From: Minisyncoccota bacterium
GTDB taxonomy: Bacteria; Patescibacteriota; Minisyncoccia; Phycocordibacterales; UBA2100
Assembly (NCBI GenBank): GCA_035708165.1
Contig: DASSSZ010000001.1
Coordinates: 230,884 to 294,883, forward strand
Length of the DNA stretch: 64,000 nucleotides
Direction of reading: 5' to 3'
Below are positions 1-15,414 of this stretch, one piece after another (within the stretch, counting starts at the first letter, position 1; each line of letters starts with the position of its first letter). Under the pieces are notes generated by a model. The model made no database searches. It saw only the letters and a list, made by a program, of their open reading frames with translations, and was not told where the DNA came from. Both the position numbers and the translations under genes were made by a program.

Positions 1-2797
1 GCGCCGCGACGACGCCGACCGCCTCGCCGAGATCCACGAGCTCGCCCGTCGAGAGATCGTTGCCGTAGCACAGCTGGCAGACGCCGCGCAGCGTCCGGCA
101 CGTCATCGGGGAGCGGATCACTGCCGAGGAGATGTGCGCCGCTTCGATCGCTTGCGCGTCGTCATGGCTCACGAGGTGGCCTTTCTTGAAGGCCGTCTCC
201 CCCGCCGTGAGCTCCTCGACGAGCGTGCGGCCGGCGATCTGGTCGGCCGCGAGTCCTGCGCCCGCCTCGCGCTCGGCGATGCTGACGCCCTCCTTCGTGC
301 CGCAGTCGTGCTCGAGGATGATGACATCCTGCGCCACATCGAAGAGGCGGCGCGTGAGGTAGCCGGCCTTCGCCGTGTTGAGCGCGGTGTCGGCCATGCC
401 CTTGCGGGCGCCGTGGGTCGAGATGAAGTACTCGATCGGCGTCATGCCCTCCTTCATCGAAGCGATGATCGGGAAATCGATCGTCTCGCCGCGCGGGTTC
501 GCGATCATGCCCTTCATGCCGGCCATCTGGTTCAGCTGGCCGAGCGAGCCGCGGGCGCCGGAGACGATCATGTTATGCACGGAGCTCGTCGGGACCATCT
601 GCGAAGCCAGCTTCTCCTGGATCTTGGCCTTCACGCCTTCCCAGATCTCGATCGTGAGGCGCTTGCGCTCATCCTCCGTGAGGAGGCCCTCCTCATACTG
701 CTCCCAGAGATGCTTCACCGCTTCCTGGCCCTCGGCCACGAGCGTCTGCTTCTCAGCAGGGACGACCACGTCCGAGAAGCTCCAGGTGATGCCGGCGACA
801 GTCGAGTACTTGAAGCCGAACGCCTTGATCTTATCGAGGATCGCCGGGATGCCCGAGAGGCCGTAGCGCTTCACGAGCTCGTTGATGAGGCGGCCCATGC
901 GCTTCTTGGTCATCTCGTCGTTGATGTACGGGAAGTCGTTCGGCAGGACCGTGTTGAAGAGGAGCCGGCCGACCGTCGTCTCGAACGGCTTGCCCTCGTA
1001 CTGCGCGTACTTCGGGTTGTCCGACGGCAGGAGAAGGATCTTCGCGCGCAGGTCCACGTCGCCGAAGTCGTGCGCGGTGATCGCGATGTTCGTGGACGGG
1101 AATGCCTTGCCCTCGCCCTTCGCGCCCTCGATGACTTGCGTCATCCAGTAGCAGCCGAGGATGATGTCCTGGCTGGGGCCGGTGACGACCTCGCCCGAAC
1201 CGGGCTTGAGCACGTTCTTGTTGGCCGACATGATCTCGCGCGCCTCCATCTGCGCCTGCTCGGAGAGCGGCACGTGGACCGAGACGGTGTCGCCGTCGAA
1301 GTCGGCGTTGTAGGCGGCACAGACCAAGGGGTGCATCTGGATCGCCGAGCCCTCGATGAGGGTCGGGCGGAAGGCCTGGAAGCTGAGGCGATGCAGCGTC
1401 GGGGCGCGGTTGAGGAGCACGTACTTGCCCTCGATCACCTCCTCGAGGATCGCCCACACCTCCGGGACGCCGTCCTCGATGAGGCGGCCGGCGCCGCGGA
1501 TGTTGAACGCAAGCTCGCGCTCAAGGAGCCCATGGATGACGAACGGGCGGAAGAGCTCGAGCGCCATGTGCTTCGGGAGCCCGCACTCGTCGAGCGCGAG
1601 ATCCGGACCGACGACAATGACCGAGCGGCCCGAGTAGTCCACGCGCTTGCCGAGGAGGTTCTGGCGGAAGTAGCCCTGCTTGCCCTTGAGGTAGTCGGCG
1701 AGCGACTTCAGCGGGCGGCGGCGTCCGCCGAGGATGCCCGAGGTGCCGCCTCCGCGGCGCATCGAGTTGTCGAGGAGCGCGTCCACTGCTTCCTGCAGGA
1801 TGCGCTTCTCGTTGCGCAGGATCACTTCCGGCGCATGGATCGCCATGAGCTTCTTCAGGCGGTTATTGCGGTTGATGACGCGGCGATAGAGGTCGTTGAG
1901 ATCCGAGCTCGCGTGACGGCCGCCTTCGAGGGCGACCATGGGCCGCAGCGCCGGCGGGACGACCGGCAGCACGGTCATGAACATCCACTCCGGACGCACG
2001 TCCGCCTTCAGCATGCTCTGCGCGAGCGCGATGCGCTTGCGGAGCTTCTCGCGGTCGACGGCGTTCGCGTCCTCGTACTGCTTCTGGAGCGCCTCGATGA
2101 AGGCCGCGAGGTCGAGATTCTTGAGGATGTCATAGAGTGCTTCCGCGCCGATCGCCGCCTCGAACATGGCGCCGTAGCGCACGGCGAACGTGTGGTACGC
2201 CGCTTCATCGAGGACGACGCCTTCCTTGATGGACTCGATGTCGCGCTTGGCTGCGGTCGCGAGCTCCTTGAGCCGCGTCTTCTCCTTAGCGTCGATGGCG
2301 GCCTTCACCTTCATCTGGAGCTCGTTCTCGAGCTCCCGGAGGAGGCGCTGCTTCTCGCTATCGTCCACCTTCGTGACGATGTAGCTCGCGAAGTAGACGA
2401 CCTTCTCGACGTCCGTCGCCGAGAGCCCCATGAGGAGCGCGATCCTGCTCGGGATGCCGCGCAGGAACCAGATGTGCGAGACCGGCGTCGCCAGCTCGAT
2501 GTGGCCCATGCGCTCGCGGCGCACGATGGCGCGCGTCACTTCGACGCCGCACTTCTCGCACTCGATGCCCTTGAAGCGGATGCCGCGGTACTTGCCGCAG
2601 TAGCACTCGTAGTCCTTCTCCGGACCGAAGATCTTCTCGTCGAAGAGGCCGTTCTTCTCCGGGCGCTGCGTGCGGTAGTTGATGGTCTCAGGCTTCGTGA
2701 CCTCGCCGTGGCTCCACTCGAGGATGCGCTCCGGGGACGCGAGGCTGACCAGCAGCTTGTCGAACGTCTGCGGGATGATGTCTGCGTGTTTCTTCAT
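1..2797 (-). CDS. rpoC: DNA-directed RNA polymerase subunit beta-prime, N-terminal ~930 aa (C-terminus lies beyond window start)
   Basis: Minus-strand translation from ATG at 2795-2797 gives MKKHADIIPQTFDKLLVSLASPERILEWSHGEVTKPETINYRTQRPEKNGLFDEKIFGPEKDYECYCGKYRGIRFKGIECEKCGVEV..IELATPVSHIWFL (beta-prime zinc finger and N-terminal clamp motifs). The listed plus-strand ORF 134..2815 is its antisense shadow. The start follows the rpoB TAA stop by 1 nt. Confidence 0.93.
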   Translation of the reverse strand, partial: MKKHADIIPQTFDKLLVSLASPERILEWSHGEVTKPETINYRTQRPEKNGLFDEKIFGPEKDYECYCGKYRGIRFKGIECEKCGVEVTRAIVRRERMGHIELATPVSHIWFLRGIPSRIALLMGLSATDVEKVVYFASYIVTKVDDSEKQRLLRELENELQMKVKAAIDAKEKTRLKELATAAKRDIESIKEGVVLDEAAYHTFAVRYGAMFEAAIGAEALYDILKNLDLAAFIEALQKQYEDANAVDREKLRKRIALAQSMLKADVRPEWMFMTVLPVVPPALRPMVALEGGRHASSDLNDLYRRVINRNNRLKKLMAIHAPEVILRNEKRILQEAVDALLDNSMRRGGGTSGILGGRRRPLKSLADYLKGKQGYFRQNLLGKRVDYSGRSVIVVGPDLALDECGLPKHMALELFRPFVIHGLLERELAFNIRGAGRLIEDGVPEVWAILEEVIEGKYVLLNRAPTLHRLSFQAFRPTLIEGSAIQMHPLVCAAYNADFDGDTVSVHVPLSEQAQMEAREIMSANKNVLKPGSGEVVTGPSQDIILGCYWMTQVIEGAKGEGKAFPSTNIAITAHDFGDVDLRAKILLLPSDNPKYAQYEGKPFETTVGRLLFNTVLPNDFPYINDEMTKKRMGRLINELVKRYGLSGIPAILDKIKAFGFKYSTVAGITWSFSDVVVPAEKQTLVAEGQEAVKHLWEQYEEGLLTEDERKRLTIEIWEGVKAKIQEKLASQMVPTSSVHNMIVSGARGSLGQLNQMAGMKGMIANPRGETIDFPIIASMKEGMTPIEYFISTHGARKGMADTALNTAKAGYLTRRLFDVAQDVIILEHDCGTKEGVSIAEREAGAGLAADQIAGRTLVEELTAGETAFKKGHLVSHDDAQAIEAAHISSAVIRSPMTCRTLRGVCQLCYGNDLSTGELVDLGEAVGVVAA

Positions 2798-8480: not shown

Positions 8481-10522
8481 TGAACAACCGAGACGGGCGC
8501 CAGCACGAACAGCGCCGCAACCATCAGCACCATCAGTATCGCGACCGCTCAAGCGCGCCCTCGCGCGGCCCTGCCCCCGCTGCCGGCACCGAGTACGAAG
8601 GCGTCATCGCGGTCACCAGGAAAGGCGTCGGCTACTTCTCGCACGAGACGCTCCCGGAGGATCTCGAGATCGATCCCGGGAAGCTCAACTGCGCGCTGAA
8701 CGGCGACACGGTGATCGTGAAGGTCGCCGGCTACTCGCCGCGCGGCCGCCTGCAGGGCGAGGTCGCGAAGGTCGTCGCGCGCGCGACGACGCAGTTCGTC
8801 GGCACGCTCGTCGAGGAGAACGGGTTCCTGATCCTCCATCCCGACAACCAGCGCGTCTATATCCATATCCGCATCCCCGAGAGCGGGCGCACGCCCGAGG
8901 CGAAGGAGGGCTACAAGGCGCTGGTCGCGCTCGATGCATGGACTGATCCCCTCTCGCCGCCCATGGGCCGCGTCATCCGCGTGCTGGGGCCGGCGGGCCT
9001 CCACGAGACGGAGATGCAGGCCACGCTCGCGGCCCACGGCTTCGTGCCGGCATTCCCGCCCGCCGTCGAGCGCGAGGCCGAGGCGATCGCTGCCAGAGGC
9101 GCGGTATCCGCAGCGGACTATGCCGAGCGCCGCGATTTCCGCGATATCCTCACCTTCACGATCGACCCGACCGACGCGAAGGACTTCGACGACGCGCTCT
9201 CGTTCCAGGCGCTCGGCGACGGCGCGTGCGAGGTCGGCATCCACATCGCCGACGTGACCAACTACGTCCGCCCGGGCACGGCGCTCGATGCCGAAGCGCG
9301 CCATCGCGCGACGTCCGTCTACCTCGTGGACCGCACCATCCCGATGCTGCCGGAGGCGCTCAGCAACAACCTCTGCTCGCTCGTGCCGCACGAGGAGCGC
9401 CTCGCCTTCTCCGCCGTCTTCACCGTCGCGCATGACGGGCAGGTGACGGAGCGCTGGTTCGGCAAGTCGGTCATCCGCTCCGCGCACCGCTTCACGTATG
9501 AGAGCGCGCAGGAATCGCTCGATGGGAAGAGCGACGTGCATCGCGAAGCGCTCGCCGAGCTCGACCGCCTGGCGCAGATCCTGCGCCAGGAGCGCACCGC
9601 GAACGGCGCCATCTCCTTCGAGACGGATGAGGTGCGCTTCGAGCTCGACGCGGACGGCAAGCCGATCCGCGTGTACGTGAAGGAGCGCCTCGAGACGATG
9701 CGGATGATCGAGGATTGGATGCTGCTGGCGAACAAGGAGGTCGCCGAATTCATCAGCAGGAAAGCGCACGAGGACCGCGCGAGCGGCAAGGCGACCGATG
9801 AGACCTTCATCTATCGCATCCACGACGAGCCGGACACCGACCGCATCGAGGACCTCAAGATCTTCCTCCATGCGATCGGCCACGACCTCGGGCATAAGGA
9901 TGCCGCGAGCATCACAGGGCGCGACGTCAACAGGCTCCTCGCCGAAGTGCGGGGCACGCCGGAAGAGGCCGTCGTCCAGATGGCGACCCTGCGCTCGATG
10001 GCAAAGGCCGTATACAGCCATAAGAATGTCGGGCACTTCAGCCTCGGCTTCAAGCATTACACCCACTTCACCTCCCCCATCCGCCGCTACCCTGACATGA
10101 TGGTGCACCGCATCCTCGAGAGCCACCTGCACGGCGAGCCGCTCTCAGCGCATGAGCTCGAGAGCTACCGCACGGCAGCGATCCACTCGAGCGAACGCGA
10201 GGTGGAAGCCGTAGCAGCCGAGCGCGACTCGGTGAAGTACAAGCAGGTCGAGTTCATGCTGGGCAAGATCGGCCAGGAGTTCGATGGCGTCATCACCGGC
10301 GTCGGCGAGCACGGCGTCTTCGTCGCGGAGAAAGAGAGCCGCGCCGAGGGCATGGCGCACGTCTCCACGCTCGGCAACGACTACTTCGAGCTCGATCGGA
10401 AGCACTACTCGATGGTGGGCCGCTCGAGCGGCAAGAAATTCCGCCTCGGCGACGCGGTCAGGATCAAGCTCCTCGCCGCCGACCTTGAGAGCCGCCAGCT
10501 TGATTGGGGCATCGTCTCCTAG
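8481..10522 (+). CDS. rnr: ribonuclease R (RNB-family 3'-5' exoribonuclease with C-terminal S1 domain)
   Basis: CSD-like N-terminus (EYEGVIAVTRKGVGYF), RNB core (DFRDILTFTIDPTDAKDFDDALS..HIADVTNYV) and S1 domain at the C-terminus. The track start at 8357 abuts the divergent rpsP start, so the true start is probably the GTG near 8481. Confidence 0.88.
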
Positions 10523-10525
10523 CGG

Positions 10526-12721
10526 TCACTTCGCCACGGCCTGCGCCTCCTCGAGCTTCACCGAGAGGAGCTTCGAGACGCCATCGGCGCCCATGGTGAC
10601 TCCGTAGAGCTCGCCTGCCGCCGCCATCGTCGCGCGGTTATGCGTGATCACGATGAGCTGGCTGCGCTTCGCGAGCGTCTCCATGATCTGCGCATAGCGG
10701 CGCGAGTTCGCTTCGTCGAGCGCCGCGTCGGTCTCGTCGAGGATCAGGAAGGGCGGCGGGTTCACCTGGCTCATCGCGAAGATGAGCGCGATCGAGGTAA
10801 GCGCGCGCTCGCCGCCGGAGAGGGTCTCGAGCCCGCGCGCCTGCTTCTTCGGGAGCTGAACGGAGACGGCGAGCCCGGCGGGCTGCGCCTCCGCATCCCC
10901 GTCGGCCTGCGGCTTCGCCGCCTCGAGCGTGAGCGATGCAGTGCCGCCGCCGAAGAGCTGCGCGAAGTAGGCGCTGAATTCCTTCTGGATGAGCGCGAGC
11001 CCGTTACGGAAGCGCTCGTCGATGGATGACTCGAGCTCCGCGATGATCTCTCGCAGCTGCTCGGCCGAGCGCGAGAGGTCCTCGGTCTCGCGCGCCAGGA
11101 ACTCGTCGCGCTCTTTCGTCTCGCGGTACTCCTTCATCACTTCGTCCGCGTTGCCGCCGCGGTACTCCTCGATGCGCACCTTCAGCCGCTCGATCTCGCG
11201 CCGGCGATCCTCCTGCAGGCGGCGATCCTCCGAGGCGGCTTCCGGCGGGACCGGCTCGCTCTGGTAGCTCATCGTGCGGCCGCCGATCAGGGCGACGCCT
11301 TCGCGCACCTCTTCCTCGAAGCGCTCGCGCGAGCGCGCGAGGTCCGCGAGCGCGGCATCGGCACGCGCGAGGGCCGCTTCCGTCTCGCGCAGCTCGCCCG
11401 TCTTCGCGATGAGATCCCGCTGCGCCGCATGGAACGCCTCGCGGCCTTCGTCGGCCTTCGCCTGAAGCGCTGCGAGCGCCTGCTCGCGCTCGCGCTCGTC
11501 CACCTGCGCGTTCTCGAATTCCATCATCAGCGCCTGCACCGTGTTCGCTGCATCATGCGCGGCATCCGCCATGGGCGAGCGCGCGTCCGTGCGATCGCCG
11601 ATCTCGCGGCGGAATGCCGCGACGCGATCTGCCACCTTCGCGAGCGCGTCGTGCGCGGCGGGCAGGCTCTCGGCCGCGCGCGCAGCGTCGATCCCGCGCT
11701 CGATATCATCCGCGAACGCCCGCGCTGCCTCTGCAGCGATCGCTTCGGCGGGCGAGCTCGGGCGCGCGACAGCGGCGCGCAGCGCAGAGAGCTCCCCTTC
11801 GGCGCGGCCGAGCGCGCGGGATGCTTCTTCGCGCGCGGCGCGCGCGGCGCTGAGCGCCTCCTTCGCCGCCTGCACGGCCGGGTCTTCCTCGGCGCCCGCG
11901 CCGGGTTCGTGCGCCGCCACGGTCGCCTGCGCCTGCGCGAGTGCGCGCGTGAGGCCGGCGAGCCGGTCGGCGAGCGCATGCCGCTCGCTGGTCGCGCGCG
12001 CGTTCTCACGAGTGAGGTAGCCGTGCTCGCGCGCTAGGTAGGTCGCGAGCTTCCCCGAGAGCGAATCCGCGAGCTCCTTTGCCGCTTCGATGCGCTCCAT
12101 CTGCTTGCCGAGGTAGCGCAGGTGCGGCGCGAGCTCGCGGCGCAGCGAGCCGACTTCGTGCAGGTTGCGGTCGGTCTCCTCGAGCTTCTTCTCGCTCTCT
12201 ATCTTCTTGCTCTGGAAGAGCTTGAGGCCGAGCGCTTCCTCGACCATCTCGCGCCGCTCGCGCGGCGATGCCGCGAGCACGCGGTCCGCTTCGCCTTGGG
12301 AGATGATGTGGTAGCCGGATGCGCCGACGTTCGCCTGCGCGAGGAGCTGCGCGACATCCCGCAGGCGCACCGGGCTGCCGTTGATCGAGTACTCGTTTGC
12401 GCCGTCGCGGAAGACGGCGCGCTCGATCACGACCTCGGGGAAATCGAGCGGGAGCGCGTGGCTCTCGTTATCGAAGACGACCTTCACCGATGCGCGGTTC
12501 GCGCGCGGCGCCTGCGAGCTCCCCGCCCAGATGAGGTCCTCCCCCTTCTTGCTGCGCATCGATTTCATCGACTGCTCGCCGAGCACGAAGCGGAACGCCT
12601 CGGCGACGTTGCTCTTGCCCGAGCCGTTCGGCCCCACGACCGCGACGATCGGCGAGCTGAACGAGAGCTCGCTCTTGCGGCCGAAGGATTTGAATCCCGA
12701 GAGCTCGATGGATTTCAGCAT
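10526..12721 (-). CDS. smc: SMC-family chromosome segregation ATPase, short form (731 aa), no recognisable hinge
   Basis: N-terminus MLKSIELSGFKSFG...VVGPNGSGKSN (Walker A). C-terminus LSGGERALTSIALIFAMSQ..FLILDETDAALD (signature plus Walker B). Long Ala/Glu/Arg-rich coiled coil between them. Confidence 0.85.
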   Translation of the reverse strand: MLKSIELSGFKSFGRKSELSFSSPIVAVVGPNGSGKSNVAEAFRFVLGEQSMKSMRSKKGEDLIWAGSSQAPRANRASVKVVFDNESHALPLDFPEVVIERAVFRDGANEYSINGSPVRLRDVAQLLAQANVGASGYHIISQGEADRVLAASPRERREMVEEALGLKLFQSKKIESEKKLEETDRNLHEVGSLRRELAPHLRYLGKQMERIEAAKELADSLSGKLATYLAREHGYLTRENARATSERHALADRLAGLTRALAQAQATVAAHEPGAGAEEDPAVQAAKEALSAARAAREEASRALGRAEGELSALRAAVARPSSPAEAIAAEAARAFADDIERGIDAARAAESLPAAHDALAKVADRVAAFRREIGDRTDARSPMADAAHDAANTVQALMMEFENAQVDEREREQALAALQAKADEGREAFHAAQRDLIAKTGELRETEAALARADAALADLARSRERFEEEVREGVALIGGRTMSYQSEPVPPEAASEDRRLQEDRRREIERLKVRIEEYRGGNADEVMKEYRETKERDEFLARETEDLSRSAEQLREIIAELESSIDERFRNGLALIQKEFSAYFAQLFGGGTASLTLEAAKPQADGDAEAQPAGLAVSVQLPKKQARGLETLSGGERALTSIALIFAMSQVNPPPFLILDETDAALDEANSRRYAQIMETLAKRSQLIVITHNRATMAAAGELYGVTMGADGVSKLLSVKLEEAQAVAK

Positions 12722-12748
12722 GCGTCACCATTGTATCAAACGAAAGGA

Positions 12749-12777
12749 AGGACGGGCGCATGCATGATGCGTCCGTC
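12749..12777 (-). terminator. hairpin GGACGGGCGCATG..CATGATGCGTCCGTCC followed by a T-rich tract on the minus strand
   Basis: Imperfect palindrome 28 nt upstream of the smc start codon; would terminate an upstream minus-strand transcript. Confidence 0.35.
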
Positions 12778-13048
12778 CTAGCGCCGGGGGCGGGAGCGGC
12801 GAAGCTGGTGTATGATCCCGGAATCTACCAGCATGCCTCGCCTGCCGTTGACGATAAGCCCCAATGAGCGGAGCAGCTGATCGTGCCGCATCATCGATCC
12901 TTTCACCCGTATCCTGCCGATCCGACGGCGGGATTTCTTCTTCATCGTGCCCGTTGCCTCCTTGGTGAGGGCCGCTTCGTACGGTATACCACGCGTGCGG
13001 CTTGGCCGCCATGCATGAAAGAGCGGGCGCCGTGGGCGCCCGCCAGTG

Positions 13049-13294
13049 TCAGAGCCGGATGACCGGATCCTTCTCATCCTTCTCGAGATAGCTCTCCTCT
13101 AGCTTTGCATCGTGCGAGACGGCGTACATGCCATCCCGCATGACGACACGGCCGTTCGCGCGCATGAGCTTGCCTTGCATCGCGAGCTCGAACACGCCTT
13201 TGGACGTCAGTCGCAGCCAGAGCACTCGGGATTTCTGAGTCTGCTCCATCGCATCGGAACCTCCTTCGGTACGGTCCCCTACTGGCACCATCAT
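13049..13294 (-). CDS. hypothetical small protein
   Basis: In-frame tail of track ORF 13049..13426 downstream of rnc (MEQTQKSRVLWLRLTSKGVFELAMQGKLMRANGRVVMRDGMYAV). A GC hairpin (13019..13042) follows the stop. No homology recognised. Confidence 0.3.
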   Translation of the reverse strand: MMVPVGDRTEGGSDAMEQTQKSRVLWLRLTSKGVFELAMQGKLMRANGRVVMRDGMYAVSHDAKLEESYLEKDEKDPVIRL

Positions 13295-13334
13295 AGCCCC
13301 GAAGGCGCCTTGACGGCTATCTGATTGCGTCGCG

Positions 13335-14024
13335 CTACCAGCCCTTCGCTGCGAGCGCAGCTTCCGCAGCGGCTTGTTCCGCCTCCTGCTTCGAATTCCC
13401 TTCGCCTTGAGCGATGAGTTCTTCATTGAGAAAGACGCCGGAGACGAAGACCTTGTCGTGATCCGGGCCGCGCTCCTCGAGGAGCTCGTAGGAAGGCGTC
13501 ACGCTCTCCTTCTCCTGCGAGAGCTCCTGGAAGCGGCTCTTCGGATCCTGCCAGAGGCGCTTCGCGACCATCTCATCGGTCTTATAGAAGAGATTGTCCG
13601 CGATGAACTGCTTCGCCCCGTCGTACCCCTGATCGAGGTAGAGCGCCCCGATGAACGCCTCGAAGGTGTTCGCGAGGATGTACTGGCGCGCGCGGCCCGT
13701 GTCCTTCGCCTCGCCTTTCGAGAGGCGGAGGTACTCGTTCATGCCGAGCTTGTCCGCCGCGTCCGAGATCGAGATCGTGTTCACCAGCGCCGCGCGGTAG
13801 GCGGTGAGCTCGCCTTCGGTCGCCTCGGGATACTTGTGGAAGAGGAAATCGGTCATCACGAGCTCGAGGACCGCGTCGCCGAGGAACTCCAGGCGCTCGT
13901 TATGCTCGATCTGCTCCTCGCGATGCTCATTGACGTACGAGCGGTGCGTGAAGGCCTGCCGGATCAGCGTCTCGTCGGCGAACGACGCGACGCCGATCTT
14001 GCGTAAGAAGGGCTCGAATTCCAT
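13335..14024 (-). CDS. rnc: ribonuclease III
   Basis: ERLEFLGDAVLELVMTDFLF (RNase III signature) plus a C-terminal dsRBD. Confidence 0.95.
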   Translation of the reverse strand: MEFEPFLRKIGVASFADETLIRQAFTHRSYVNEHREEQIEHNERLEFLGDAVLELVMTDFLFHKYPEATEGELTAYRAALVNTISISDAADKLGMNEYLRLSKGEAKDTGRARQYILANTFEAFIGALYLDQGYDGAKQFIADNLFYKTDEMVAKRLWQDPKSRFQELSQEKESVTPSYELLEERGPDHDKVFVSGVFLNEELIAQGEGNSKQEAEQAAAEAALAAKGW

Positions 14025-14035
14025 GCGGCGGCAGA

Positions 14036-14986
14036 TTACTCCTTTTCGCCCTTGCGCGCAATAAGGAGGGTGATCGCGTTCGTCACGATCGGAAGGATAT
14101 CATCATAGAAATTAAGGTCGCCCACGCGCGCGAGCGGGAACCACTGCGCGTCGTCGAGGCCGCCTTCGCGCTTGAGCGTAAGGTCATCGAAGGGAGACCG
14201 CACCAGGAAGTACTGCGCGTGGCGGCGCTTCTTGCCGTGCTCAGGGTCATTCGCGATGTACTCGTTCTCTCCCAGCCGGTCCTCCACCGTGCCGGGCAGG
14301 CCGATCTCCTCCTTCACCTTGCGCAGGACGCCGTCCTCCGGCTTCTCATCCGGCAGGAGCTTGCCCTTGCTGAGGGTCCAATGGCCGAAGATGTCATGCA
14401 CGAGCGCGAGATAGATGTCGGTCCCCTCGACGGCATAGACGATCGCGCCTACGAGCTGCTCGAGATGCATCTGCTCGTACGGGATCTGCTTCTTCTTCGA
14501 GACCTCGTCCTTGCCCGGCTCGCCGAGCTCGACGTAGACCGCGCCGAGGACGCCGTTCACGAAGCGGCTGCTGGTCTCGCTGCCGAATGTCTTGGCAAGC
14601 TCGATCGCCTCGTTGATGGCGACCTTCGCCGGCACCTGCGTGCGATCGGCATAGAGGAGCTCCGCGAGCCCGAGGCGCAGGATATTGCGATCGATGACCG
14701 AGATCTTCTCGATCGGCCATTCGGGTGCGGCCTTCTCGATGACAGCATCCAGCTCCGAGCGCTTCGCGGTCACGGTAGAGAGGAGCTCCTGCATGAACGG
14801 CTCGTCGGCGACGCCCTGGCCGAACTCCTCCGTATTCGCCGCTAGCCGCTCCATGAGCGCGTCCTGGGCCATGGTGCATCCGGCGGAATCCCATTCGAAG
14901 AGGGTCTGGAGAACGATGGATCGCGACCGGTGCCGATTCGCCATATGTCTTGCTGCCAGTGTGCCTGCTTGGCGGCCGATGCGCAA
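14036..14986 (-). CDS. nusB: NusB (transcription antitermination) fused to a C-terminal NUDIX hydrolase domain
   Basis: N-terminal half: RSRSIVLQTLFEWD...SSRFVNGVLGAV (NusB). C-terminal half: GVLRKVKEEIGLPG (Nudix box GX5EX7REVXEEXGU) with DAQWFPL. The likely real start is MANRHRS near 14944. Confidence 0.85.
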   Translation of the reverse strand: MRIGRQAGTLAARHMANRHRSRSIVLQTLFEWDSAGCTMAQDALMERLAANTEEFGQGVADEPFMQELLSTVTAKRSELDAVIEKAAPEWPIEKISVIDRNILRLGLAELLYADRTQVPAKVAINEAIELAKTFGSETSSRFVNGVLGAVYVELGEPGKDEVSKKKQIPYEQMHLEQLVGAIVYAVEGTDIYLALVHDIFGHWTLSKGKLLPDEKPEDGVLRKVKEEIGLPGTVEDRLGENEYIANDPEHGKKRRHAQYFLVRSPFDDLTLKREGGLDDAQWFPLARVGDLNFYDDILPIVTNAITLLIARKGEKE

Positions 14987-15026: not shown

Positions 15027-15320
15027 TTACTTCTGCTCGTCGTGCGAGTGGTCGTGCTCGTCGGCGCCCCCCTCGGAGGCGGACGTCATGCCGAGCTCGG
15101 CAAGGAGCTGCTCGCGGCGCTTCGTGCGGCGCTGCGTGCGCTCCGTGCGGGCGACGACATCGATCACCTGCTTGCCGCGGTACATCCCGCAGGCCTGGCA
15201 GGCGGTGTGGCGCACATGCATCGCCCCGCACGCGCACTGCGTGAGGCGCGGCTCGGGAAGCGCGTGGTGCGACCGGCGGTTGCCGGTATGCCCCTTGGTG
15301 CTACGCATGCGATTGACCAT
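15027..15320 (-). CDS. rpmF: 50S ribosomal protein L32 with acidic/His C-terminal extension
   Basis: MVNRMRSTKGHTGNRRSHHALPEP..C.C...RHTACQACGMYRGKQV matches the L32 zinc-ribbon pattern. Tail is SEGGADEHDHSHDEQK. Confidence 0.85.
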   Translation of the reverse strand: MVNRMRSTKGHTGNRRSHHALPEPRLTQCACGAMHVRHTACQACGMYRGKQVIDVVARTERTQRRTKRREQLLAELGMTSASEGGADEHDHSHDEQK

Positions 15321-15414
15321 AGTGCTGCGCAGTATACCGGTTTTCCTGCCGATGGCAAGGCCCCCAAAAGGAAGCCGCCGCGCTGATGCGCGGCGGCGTT
15401 CGGGGCTACGCTGC

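Follow-up and report, generated by a model that had tools for sequence, protein, structure and literature searches.

A 64,000-nucleotide stretch of DNA from a Minisyncoccota bacterium (assembly GCA_035708165.1, contig DASSSZ010000001.1, positions 230,884 to 294,883; hereafter the window) carries a gene in which the antitermination factor NusB is joined to a Nudix-fold domain. NusB is a universal factor in rRNA antitermination and ribosome biogenesis that normally consists of a single domain, and it binds boxA of the pre-rRNA leader. The gene is flanked on the same strand by rpmF and rnc (Table 1), in agreement with the RNA-processing neighbourhood proposed in a preliminary description made from the letters of this DNA. 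The fusion is real, ancient and lineage-wide in the Patescibacteria. What has arisen in this lineage is a two-domain NusB with an accessory Nudix fold that appears to be on its way from an enzyme to a pseudo-enzyme.

The open reading frame (ORF) runs uninterrupted on the minus strand from 14036 to 14986 of the window, and the length of 316 residues first assigned to its product corresponds to this frame. The protein itself is almost certainly shorter. Because all 29 aligned homologs have the sequence MANR at the point of ATG 14944, where 26 of them begin and 3 are extended N-terminally, this ATG is almost certainly the real start, and not TTG 14986. Together with the TAA stop at 14036-14038, it gives a protein of 302 residues (codons checked), which is referred to below as the query. 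The two domains of the preliminary description are both found in this single protein, as are the sequence strings quoted for them, and profile searches place both above their gathering scores. In the 316-residue reading, the NusB family of Pfam (PF01029) covers residues 19-150 with an E-value of 2e-33 and 116 bits (cutoff 23.1), and the NUDIX family (PF00293) covers residues 179-288 with an E-value of 3e-12 and 47.1 bits (cutoff 21.1).

The N-terminal half is a complete NusB. It reaches 121.2 bits with the NCBIfam nusB model TIGR01951, whose equivalog cutoff is 88.35, and its 140 residues align to residues 4-128 of the 139 of Escherichia coli NusB (E-value 5e-16); the E. coli chains aligned include ones from solved lambda-N and rrn antitermination complexes. 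The AlphaFold2 (AF2) model has seven helices over residues 5-139, with a predicted local distance difference test score (pLDDT) mostly above 90. The model of an ortholog superposes on NusB of the NusB-S10 complex (3imq) with a template modelling (TM) score of 0.82, and on 1eyv with scores of 0.77-0.80. Since the genomic slot is conserved and the gene is universally present among relatives, it would be the organism's own nusB; a second NusB-like or Nudix gene was not found within the window. The likeness to canonical NusB thus extends over nearly the whole E. coli protein, whereas canonical NusB is a single domain of about 140 residues and the query adds 160 residues of linker and Nudix fold and sits in an rpmF-nusB-rnc operon. 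A similar layout is seen in RsmB (Sun), the 16S rRNA m5C967 methyltransferase, in which an N-terminal NusB-like RNA-binding domain is likewise followed by a C-terminal enzyme-fold domain. Unlike RsmB, the query has no methyltransferase domain, and its N-terminal half appears to be an orthologous NusB and not merely a NusB-like one; the best RsmB model gives 50.8 bits against a cutoff of 319, in a match confined to the NusB-like N-terminus.

The AF2 model of the whole protein has a mean pLDDT of 89 and both domains are predicted with confidence. Residues 145-152 of the linker are predicted to be disordered, and no confident packing of the domains against each other is proposed (predicted TM score 0.52). 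Directly behind the NusB fold lies the motif GEPGK (14510..14524, residues 141-145), which despite the predicted disorder is invariant in all sequences of an alignment of 81, comprising the query and 80 species genomes. A Lys-rich stretch follows it. GEPGK may serve for docking or as a hinge.

A homolog search gave at least 8000 proteins, and the 120 best matches were taken as the set of close homologs. These are about 300 residues long each and all contain both Pfam domains; the named ones are labelled 'NusB' and come from Paceibacterota, Uhrbacteria or Patescibacteria. When one genome per GTDB species was surveyed, the fusion was encoded in at least 573 species genomes, every one of them from the Patescibacteria, with carriers among the Paceibacterota, Kaiser-, Adler- and Nomurabacteria, Parcubacteria and Minisyncoccia. 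In a sample of 80 loci from related species genomes, the order rnhB-rpmF-nusB::nudix-rnc-smc was collinear on one strand in 72-79 loci; rpmF was found upstream on the same strand in 78, rnc downstream on the same strand in 79, and a divergently oriented dnaE in 66. Even in two very distant orthologs (P0176 and P0273) the genomic slot is the same, and both fusion and slot are stable down to about 30% identity. The named taxa among the divergent fused clades all belong to the Parcubacteria group. Some third-party metagenome-assembled genomes carry the label 'Candidatus Saccharibacteria', which looks generic, as their sequences interleave with Paceibacterota-labelled ones.

A trivial explanation would be a spurious joining of two neighbouring genes, through a frameshift, an overlooked stop codon or a mis-assembly; the first two had been put forward in the preliminary description itself as possible refutations. 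A continuous architecture of 290-310 residues recurs in thousands of independently assembled sequences (NCBI, JGI, ENA, Logan), and the linker motif GEPGK is invariant. Because the fusion is kept in so many species genomes with conserved synteny, an artefact is ruled out for practical purposes. As to whether the two domains are separate genes in relatives, they are fused in every related genome sampled, and no genuine case of a split or unfused version of this Nudix clade was found among the homologs. One protein that looked like a stand-alone Nudix domain (P0127, 149 residues, then rnc) is a truncated fusion on a contig that starts with a sequencing adapter. Nucleotides 1..21 of this Logan contig (L083) are the Nextera transposase adapter AGATGTGTATAAGAGACAG, which creates a false stop codon and with it the false stand-alone call. 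The remaining short matches were fragments, or else canonical Nudix proteins of the ordinary kind with about 30% identity. A HMMER pass over 1.84 billion cluster representatives returned 121 clusters at an E-value of 1e-10 or below, nearly all of them fused proteins or their fragments, which shows the Nudix clade of the fused proteins to be small and specific.

The C-terminal domain is modelled by AF2 with a pLDDT mostly above 90. A Foldseek search with it gave 541 matches at an E-value of 0.001 or below, and the top 50 are all Nudix-fold proteins. The best is the diadenosine tetraphosphate (Ap4A) hydrolase of Aquifex (3i7u), with a target-normalised TM score of 0.85. Other near folds are mycobacterial MutT1/Rv2985, Thermus Ndx1 and Chlamydia CT771, and Dcp2 and the non-catalytic domain of NrtR (rank 5) also stand high. 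A profile of the domain alone has CT771, aq_158, Rv2985, human NUDT2 and the Caenorhabditis elegans Ap4A hydrolase as its top five matches, with Dcp2 Nudix domains also significant. Because its fold and profile neighbours are diadenosine polyphosphate (ApnA) hydrolases, the domain is taken to descend from the Ap4A/ApnA-hydrolase branch of the Nudix proteins. With the enzymes of this branch (NUDT2, the C. elegans enzyme, Aquifex aq_158, CT771, Rv2985/MutT1 and Thermus Ndx1) it shares the HWT-x-x-KG lead-in and the Tyr of the X-loop; it differs from them by a Lys in place of the first Glu of REUxEE and by the fusion to NusB. E. coli RppH also lies within the ApnA-hydrolase branch. The NCBIfam RppH models score far below cutoff (NF001936, 16.7 bits against 118; NF001937, 12.8 against 139), MutT1 and MutT are weak NCBIfam matches, and NUDIX_2 of Pfam is below its cutoff with 15 bits against 27. 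The domain is acidic, with an isoelectric point of about 5.

The Nudix box had been described as intact, on the strength of the segment GVLRKVKEEIGLPGTVEDRLGE. This segment is out of register. The only one that fits GX5EX7-R-x-U-x-E-E-x-G-U is GKLLPDEKPEDGVLRKVKEEIGL. Here a Lys (K209) takes the place of the 'RE' Glu of GX5EX7REUXEEXGU, so that the query reads R-K-V-K-E-E. Alignments to solved Nudix enzymes in the PDB all set K209 opposite the canonical Glu. One of the three core glutamates of the canonical box is thus lost in the query, and many orthologs have lost more. The RK dipeptide occurs in 118 of the 120 close homologs when searched as a fixed-spacing pattern, and R208 and K209 are invariant in an alignment of 30 sequences. 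Beyond this neighbourhood the position varies freely. Among the 81 sequences, residue 209 is K in 28, E in 25, A in 9, V in 7, G in 6 and S in 3. A second, independent sample of 120 fused proteins has E in 78, A in 24, K in 9, I in 5 and V in 3 at this position, and E in 60, Q in 33, D in 16 and K in 6 at position 212. Across the 37 most diverse cluster representatives, Glu is found at 209 in 8 and at 212 in 20. The extreme is a clade (P0207, P0272, P0273) whose box reads KKIKEK or RVIKKK, in which E228 is replaced by S and D264-D265 by IS or IT. Its members are without most or all of the acidic candidate ligands, yet have kept the domain and the genomic slot. A site that compensates for changes at 209 was sought by co-variation and nothing convincing emerged; the top normalised mutual information, 0.56, belongs to a low-entropy column and fits shared ancestry. 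Thirteen loci (L016, L026, L029, L037, L042, L046, L054, L057, L058, L060, L071, L074, L078) have an insertion of five residues in the first box loop (GKIGDxPxxAxE), which turns GX5E into GX10E. They are mostly orthologs with canonical RE (L054 has RG), so this subgroup is not strictly canonical either.

The strict consensus box is matched by none of the 120 close homologs, by 12 of 80 species genomes, by 5 of the 37 diverse representatives and by 18 of the 120 proteins of the independent sample. All 16 of the nearest stand-alone relatives, of about 140 residues, match it. As 0-15% of the fused proteins have the strict box against 16/16 of the stand-alone ones, relaxation of the box is specific to the fused state, and selection on the catalytic motif has been relaxed since the fusion, repeatedly and in place. 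This comparison also bears on the idea that the domain is a housekeeping hydrolase, which sanitises nucleotides or clears ApnA and was joined to NusB as a fusion of convenience in a streamlined genome, with no role at the transcription complex. Such an origin would suit the nearest stand-alone relatives, which are ordinary canonical Nudix hydrolases, one of them named diadenosine hexaphosphate hydrolase, and the weak matches to MutT1 and MutT. A free metabolic enzyme should keep its box, however, and 85-100% of the fused proteins do not, against 0/16 of the stand-alone ones. An arrangement of mere convenience is also at odds with the failure to find a split or unfused version, the one apparent case being the adapter-truncated contig, and with a fusion and slot that hold across deep divergence. 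A housekeeping role is very unlikely on these grounds.

The consequences of losing the first Glu can be gauged from other Nudix proteins. In human Ap4A hydrolase, PDB chains 4ick and 4ijx (labelled E58A) and 1xsa-1xsc read ALRATQEEAG; E58 of NUDT2 corresponds to position 209 of the query, and the ligand-bound structures of this enzyme carry RA in place of RE. The E58A variant reportedly served to capture complexes with ligands. In many fused orthologs 'RA' occurs naturally. In NUDT9, a catalytic Mg2+ is coordinated by the first Glu of REUXEE, and a NUDT9 with the sequence RILGEE is inactive (PMC6461439). The NUDT9-H domain of human TRPM2, which reads RILRQE, binds ADP-ribose without hydrolysing it, its orthologs in invertebrates are canonical and active, and catalysis is uncoupled from channel gating (PMC6461439). 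This case resembles the present one in that a Nudix domain has been fused to an unrelated protein and is canonical in some lineages and changed from RE to RI in others; it differs in being eukaryotic, in belonging to the ADP-ribose pyrophosphatase branch, in its fusion to an ion channel and in its ligand, ADP-ribose. Boxes that depart from the canonical one, and whose chemistry is altered or absent, are also known from GDP-mannose glycosyl hydrolase (RLx2AE) and IDI (RRx2[AY]E), and the RNA binder NUDT21/CFIm25 has the box GX5EX7RLX2EIXGR (PMC5389931). NUDT21/CFIm25 and the effector domain of NrtR, an ADP-ribose sensor, likewise use a Nudix fold with a degenerate box for binding; both come from other Nudix branches, and the query has neither a DNA-binding domain nor CFIm partner domains.

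These precedents matter for the view that the domain is primarily an active enzyme, either an RNA 5'-end pyrophosphohydrolase or decapping enzyme (RppH-, NudC- or Dcp2-like) or an ApnA hydrolase. NusB would then deliver it to nascent boxA transcripts, where the conversion of 5'-triphosphate or capped ends to 5'-monophosphate would license RNase processing of the pre-rRNA leader. In kinetoplastids, an RNA-binding partner brings the Nudix enzyme MERS1 to the 5' ends of primary transcripts. The operon shared with RNase III, whose gene lies 11 nucleotides away, would fit this view, and the fold and sequence neighbours, ApnA hydrolases with Dcp2 also significant, are themselves enzymes. It is harder to reconcile with a Lys in the query at the position of the Mg-coordinating Glu, a position that varies freely among orthologs, that inactivates NUDT9 when equivalently substituted (PMC6461439) and that is also substituted in the ligand-bound human Ap4A hydrolase structures. 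E212, E213, E200, R208 and E228 are kept in the clade of the query, and 10-15% of orthologs have a canonical box; on the other side stand whole clades that retain the domain without most or all of the acidic ligands, and scores of 13-17 bits with RppH models whose cutoffs are 118-139. Enzymatic activity as the primary function is therefore regarded as a live though rather unlikely alternative. The RppH- or NudC-like catalysis suggested in the preliminary description is accordingly possible and not the best-supported reading, as its premise of an intact box fails and the RppH models stay below cutoff.

Constraint on the Nudix half is strong outside the box. Within the close homologs its mean pairwise identity is 75%, against 71% for the NusB half. 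E213, E228, Y229, D184, W189, K193, W268, Y280 and D282 are invariant in the 81 sequences, and D184, F186, W189, T190, K193, G194, Y229, G262, W268 and Y280 are each present in 120/120 proteins of the independent sample. The Nudix half is under purifying selection that does not act on the catalytic motif. By sequence alignment, Y229 corresponds to the Tyr within 'ELNYVA' of human NUDT2, which has the number 87 in 1xsa. This X-loop residue (Tyr87 of human Ap4A hydrolase) is a specificity marker of ApnA hydrolases and contacts the adenine ring (PMC5389931). K193 is the residue directly before the box glycine, and the resulting 'KG' recurs in the ApnA hydrolases. Because Y229 and K193 are invariant even in members with a dead box, we infer that the domain still recognises nucleotides, also in proteins that can no longer be catalytic.

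The same residues weigh on a purely architectural alternative, in which the domain is a pseudo-enzyme that holds no small ligand and provides a protein-protein or protein-RNA scaffold in a Patescibacterial antitermination complex. Its model would be an accessory factor such as SuhB, which is part of the rrn transcription antitermination complex of E. coli and whose phosphatase activity is not required in that bacterium (PMC6614797). SuhB is likewise an enzyme-fold subunit of a Nus-factor complex and its recruitment depends on NusB and boxA (PMC6614797), whereas it has an inositol-monophosphatase fold and is a separate polypeptide, so that its equivalence with the Nudix tail is one of analogy only. 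Retention of the domain by dead-box clades, its presence as a fusion in every related genome sampled and an invariant linker that resembles a docking or hinge element are what a scaffold would lead one to expect. Invariant Y229 and K193 point instead to retained nucleotide recognition, the acidity of the domain disfavours non-specific RNA binding, and AF2 proposes no confident interdomain packing. A scaffold without any ligand is accordingly distinctly unlikely.

The preferred reading is that the Nudix tail is an accessory module on NusB, either architectural or binding a nucleotide or an RNA 5' end, for which catalysis is dispensable across the family; a probability of about 0.5 is given to it. 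The NusB half would act as elsewhere, binding boxA RNA with S10 (NusE) in the rRNA antitermination complex, and the Nudix tail would be carried by boxA-bound NusB, on the side where the RNA leaves RNA polymerase. Its family-wide role would need no hydrolysis and would most likely consist in holding a nucleotide-like ligand. Candidates are a small molecule of the ApnA or nucleoside triphosphate type and the 5' end of the nascent pre-rRNA leader, triphosphorylated or Np4-capped; alternatively, the tail may be an architectural subunit at the antitermination complex. A more specific and rather unlikely version can be offered tentatively. Here the tail would be a sensor or tether that captures an Ap4A-type alarmone, (p)ppGpp, ATP, or the triphosphorylated or Np4A-capped 5' end of the nascent pre-rRNA leader beside boxA-bound NusB-S10. 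In ultra-small Patescibacteria it would thereby link the transcription of rRNA and its processing by RNase III to nucleotide status or to the identity of the 5' end, and a minority of lineages would still hydrolyse the ligand. The leader-trailer helix of pre-rRNA is cut by RNase III, whose site overlaps boxC (PMC10250234).

Several observations weigh against the preferred reading. The clade of the query keeps E200, R208, E212, E213, E228, D264 and D265 invariant or nearly so. The fixation of Lys209 in this clade has the look of selection on a particular chemistry of the pocket and not of decay, and a Lys at this position could substitute for a metal ion. The roughly 10-15% of orthologs with a fully canonical box may be active enzymes. 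The invariant aromatic residues could be merely residues of the fold core. The confident Nudix fold predicted for a dead-box ortholog, whose best match is again the same Ap4A hydrolase, comes from an AF2 model built on an alignment that includes box-bearing relatives. Catalysis in the query's own RK clade is uncertain, and residual or altered activity may persist there, because Lys209 is fixed and none of the other acidic residues has been lost.

The surroundings of the gene provide some further observations. A GC-rich terminator-like hairpin (15374..15397; 10 G-C pairs, then a T-rich tail) follows rnhB and precedes a promoter-like match before rpmF. Together these two, which are consensus matches only, suggest that rpmF-nusB::nudix-rnc is a transcription unit separate from rnhB. 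Ribosomal protein L32, encoded by rpmF, has 97 residues, with a C-terminal extension that ends in an acidic, His-rich tail EGGADEHDHSHDEQK; the L32p family of Pfam spans residues 6-54 only. On the other side of rnc, a spacer of 613 nucleotides (12722..13334) separates it from smc, which in distant relatives follows rnc directly. The spacer contains no Pfam-annotated gene and no Rfam match, and it showed no conservation by blastn or tblastx across 80 related loci. The SMC protein (10526..12721, minus strand) has just 731 residues, with both halves of the head complete and a single Pfam SMC_N match over residues 1-716; its orthologs have 735 residues in L081 and 723 in L084. A typical bacterial SMC has roughly 1200 residues, which implies that the coiled coil is much shortened here. 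Downstream of smc, an ORF of 527 residues (8549..10132, minus strand) has no Pfam match, and a relative occurs at the same downstream position in 30 of 80 loci. No rRNA operon or boxA was found within the window, where the sole Rfam match is one tRNA. The G+C content of the window is 64%, which is high for Patescibacteria. As the closest ortholog from a public species-representative genome (L001) has 75% protein identity, the source is probably an undescribed species.

Table 1. Features of the nusB::nudix locus, in window coordinates.
Feature	Position	Strand	Basis or remark
nusB::nudix coding sequence, 302 aa	14036..14944	minus	ORF, start and stop codons, homolog alignment
NusB domain, aa 1-140	14525..14944	minus	PF01029, TIGR01951, E. 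coli NusB alignment
Interdomain linker, aa 141-160	14465..14524	minus	AF2 pLDDT <50 at 145-152; GEPGK invariant
Nudix-fold domain, Ap4A/ApnA-hydrolase type, aa 161-302	14039..14464	minus	PF00293, AF2, Foldseek, domain profile
Nudix box GKLLPDEKPEDGVLRKVKEEIGL, aa 194-216, non-canonical	14297..14365	minus	
K209 codon, replaces first Glu of REUxEE	14318..14320	minus	
Y229 codon, aligned with X-loop Tyr of ApnA hydrolases	14258..14260	minus	
rpmF (ribosomal protein L32), upstream gene	15027..15320	minus	Pfam PF01783; 82-nt gap to nusB
rnc (RNase III), downstream gene	13335..14024	minus	Pfam Ribonuclease_3 and dsrm; 11-nt gap past nusB::nudix stop
Sigma-70-like promoter match TTGCCA-16-TATACT, just upstream of rpmF	15331..15358	minus	weak; 1 site against 0.8 expected by chance

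Neither domain is new, and databases already contain the architecture, with NusB as its sole annotation. Judged by titles, no publication on a NusB-Nudix fusion was found in the literature, and a review of the Nudix clan never mentions NusB (PMC5389931). There is as yet no evidence for a new mechanism. For annotation, the Nudix half should not be named a hydrolase from a Pfam match alone. The Nudix boxes of the family grade naturally from canonical to dead, which could be used for studying the change from an enzyme to a binding module; if the domain is indeed a sensor or tether, the family would represent a natural progression from enzyme to pseudo-enzyme within a core factor of transcription. 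A large and poorly understood bacterial radiation has added a nucleotide-binding fold to NusB and kept it through deep divergence while the catalytic motif eroded, which bears on the organisation of rRNA synthesis in minimal bacteria. Should the domain prove to bind a nucleotide or the 5' end of an RNA, it would represent an unrecognised input into rRNA synthesis and processing in organisms with minimal regulatory repertoires.

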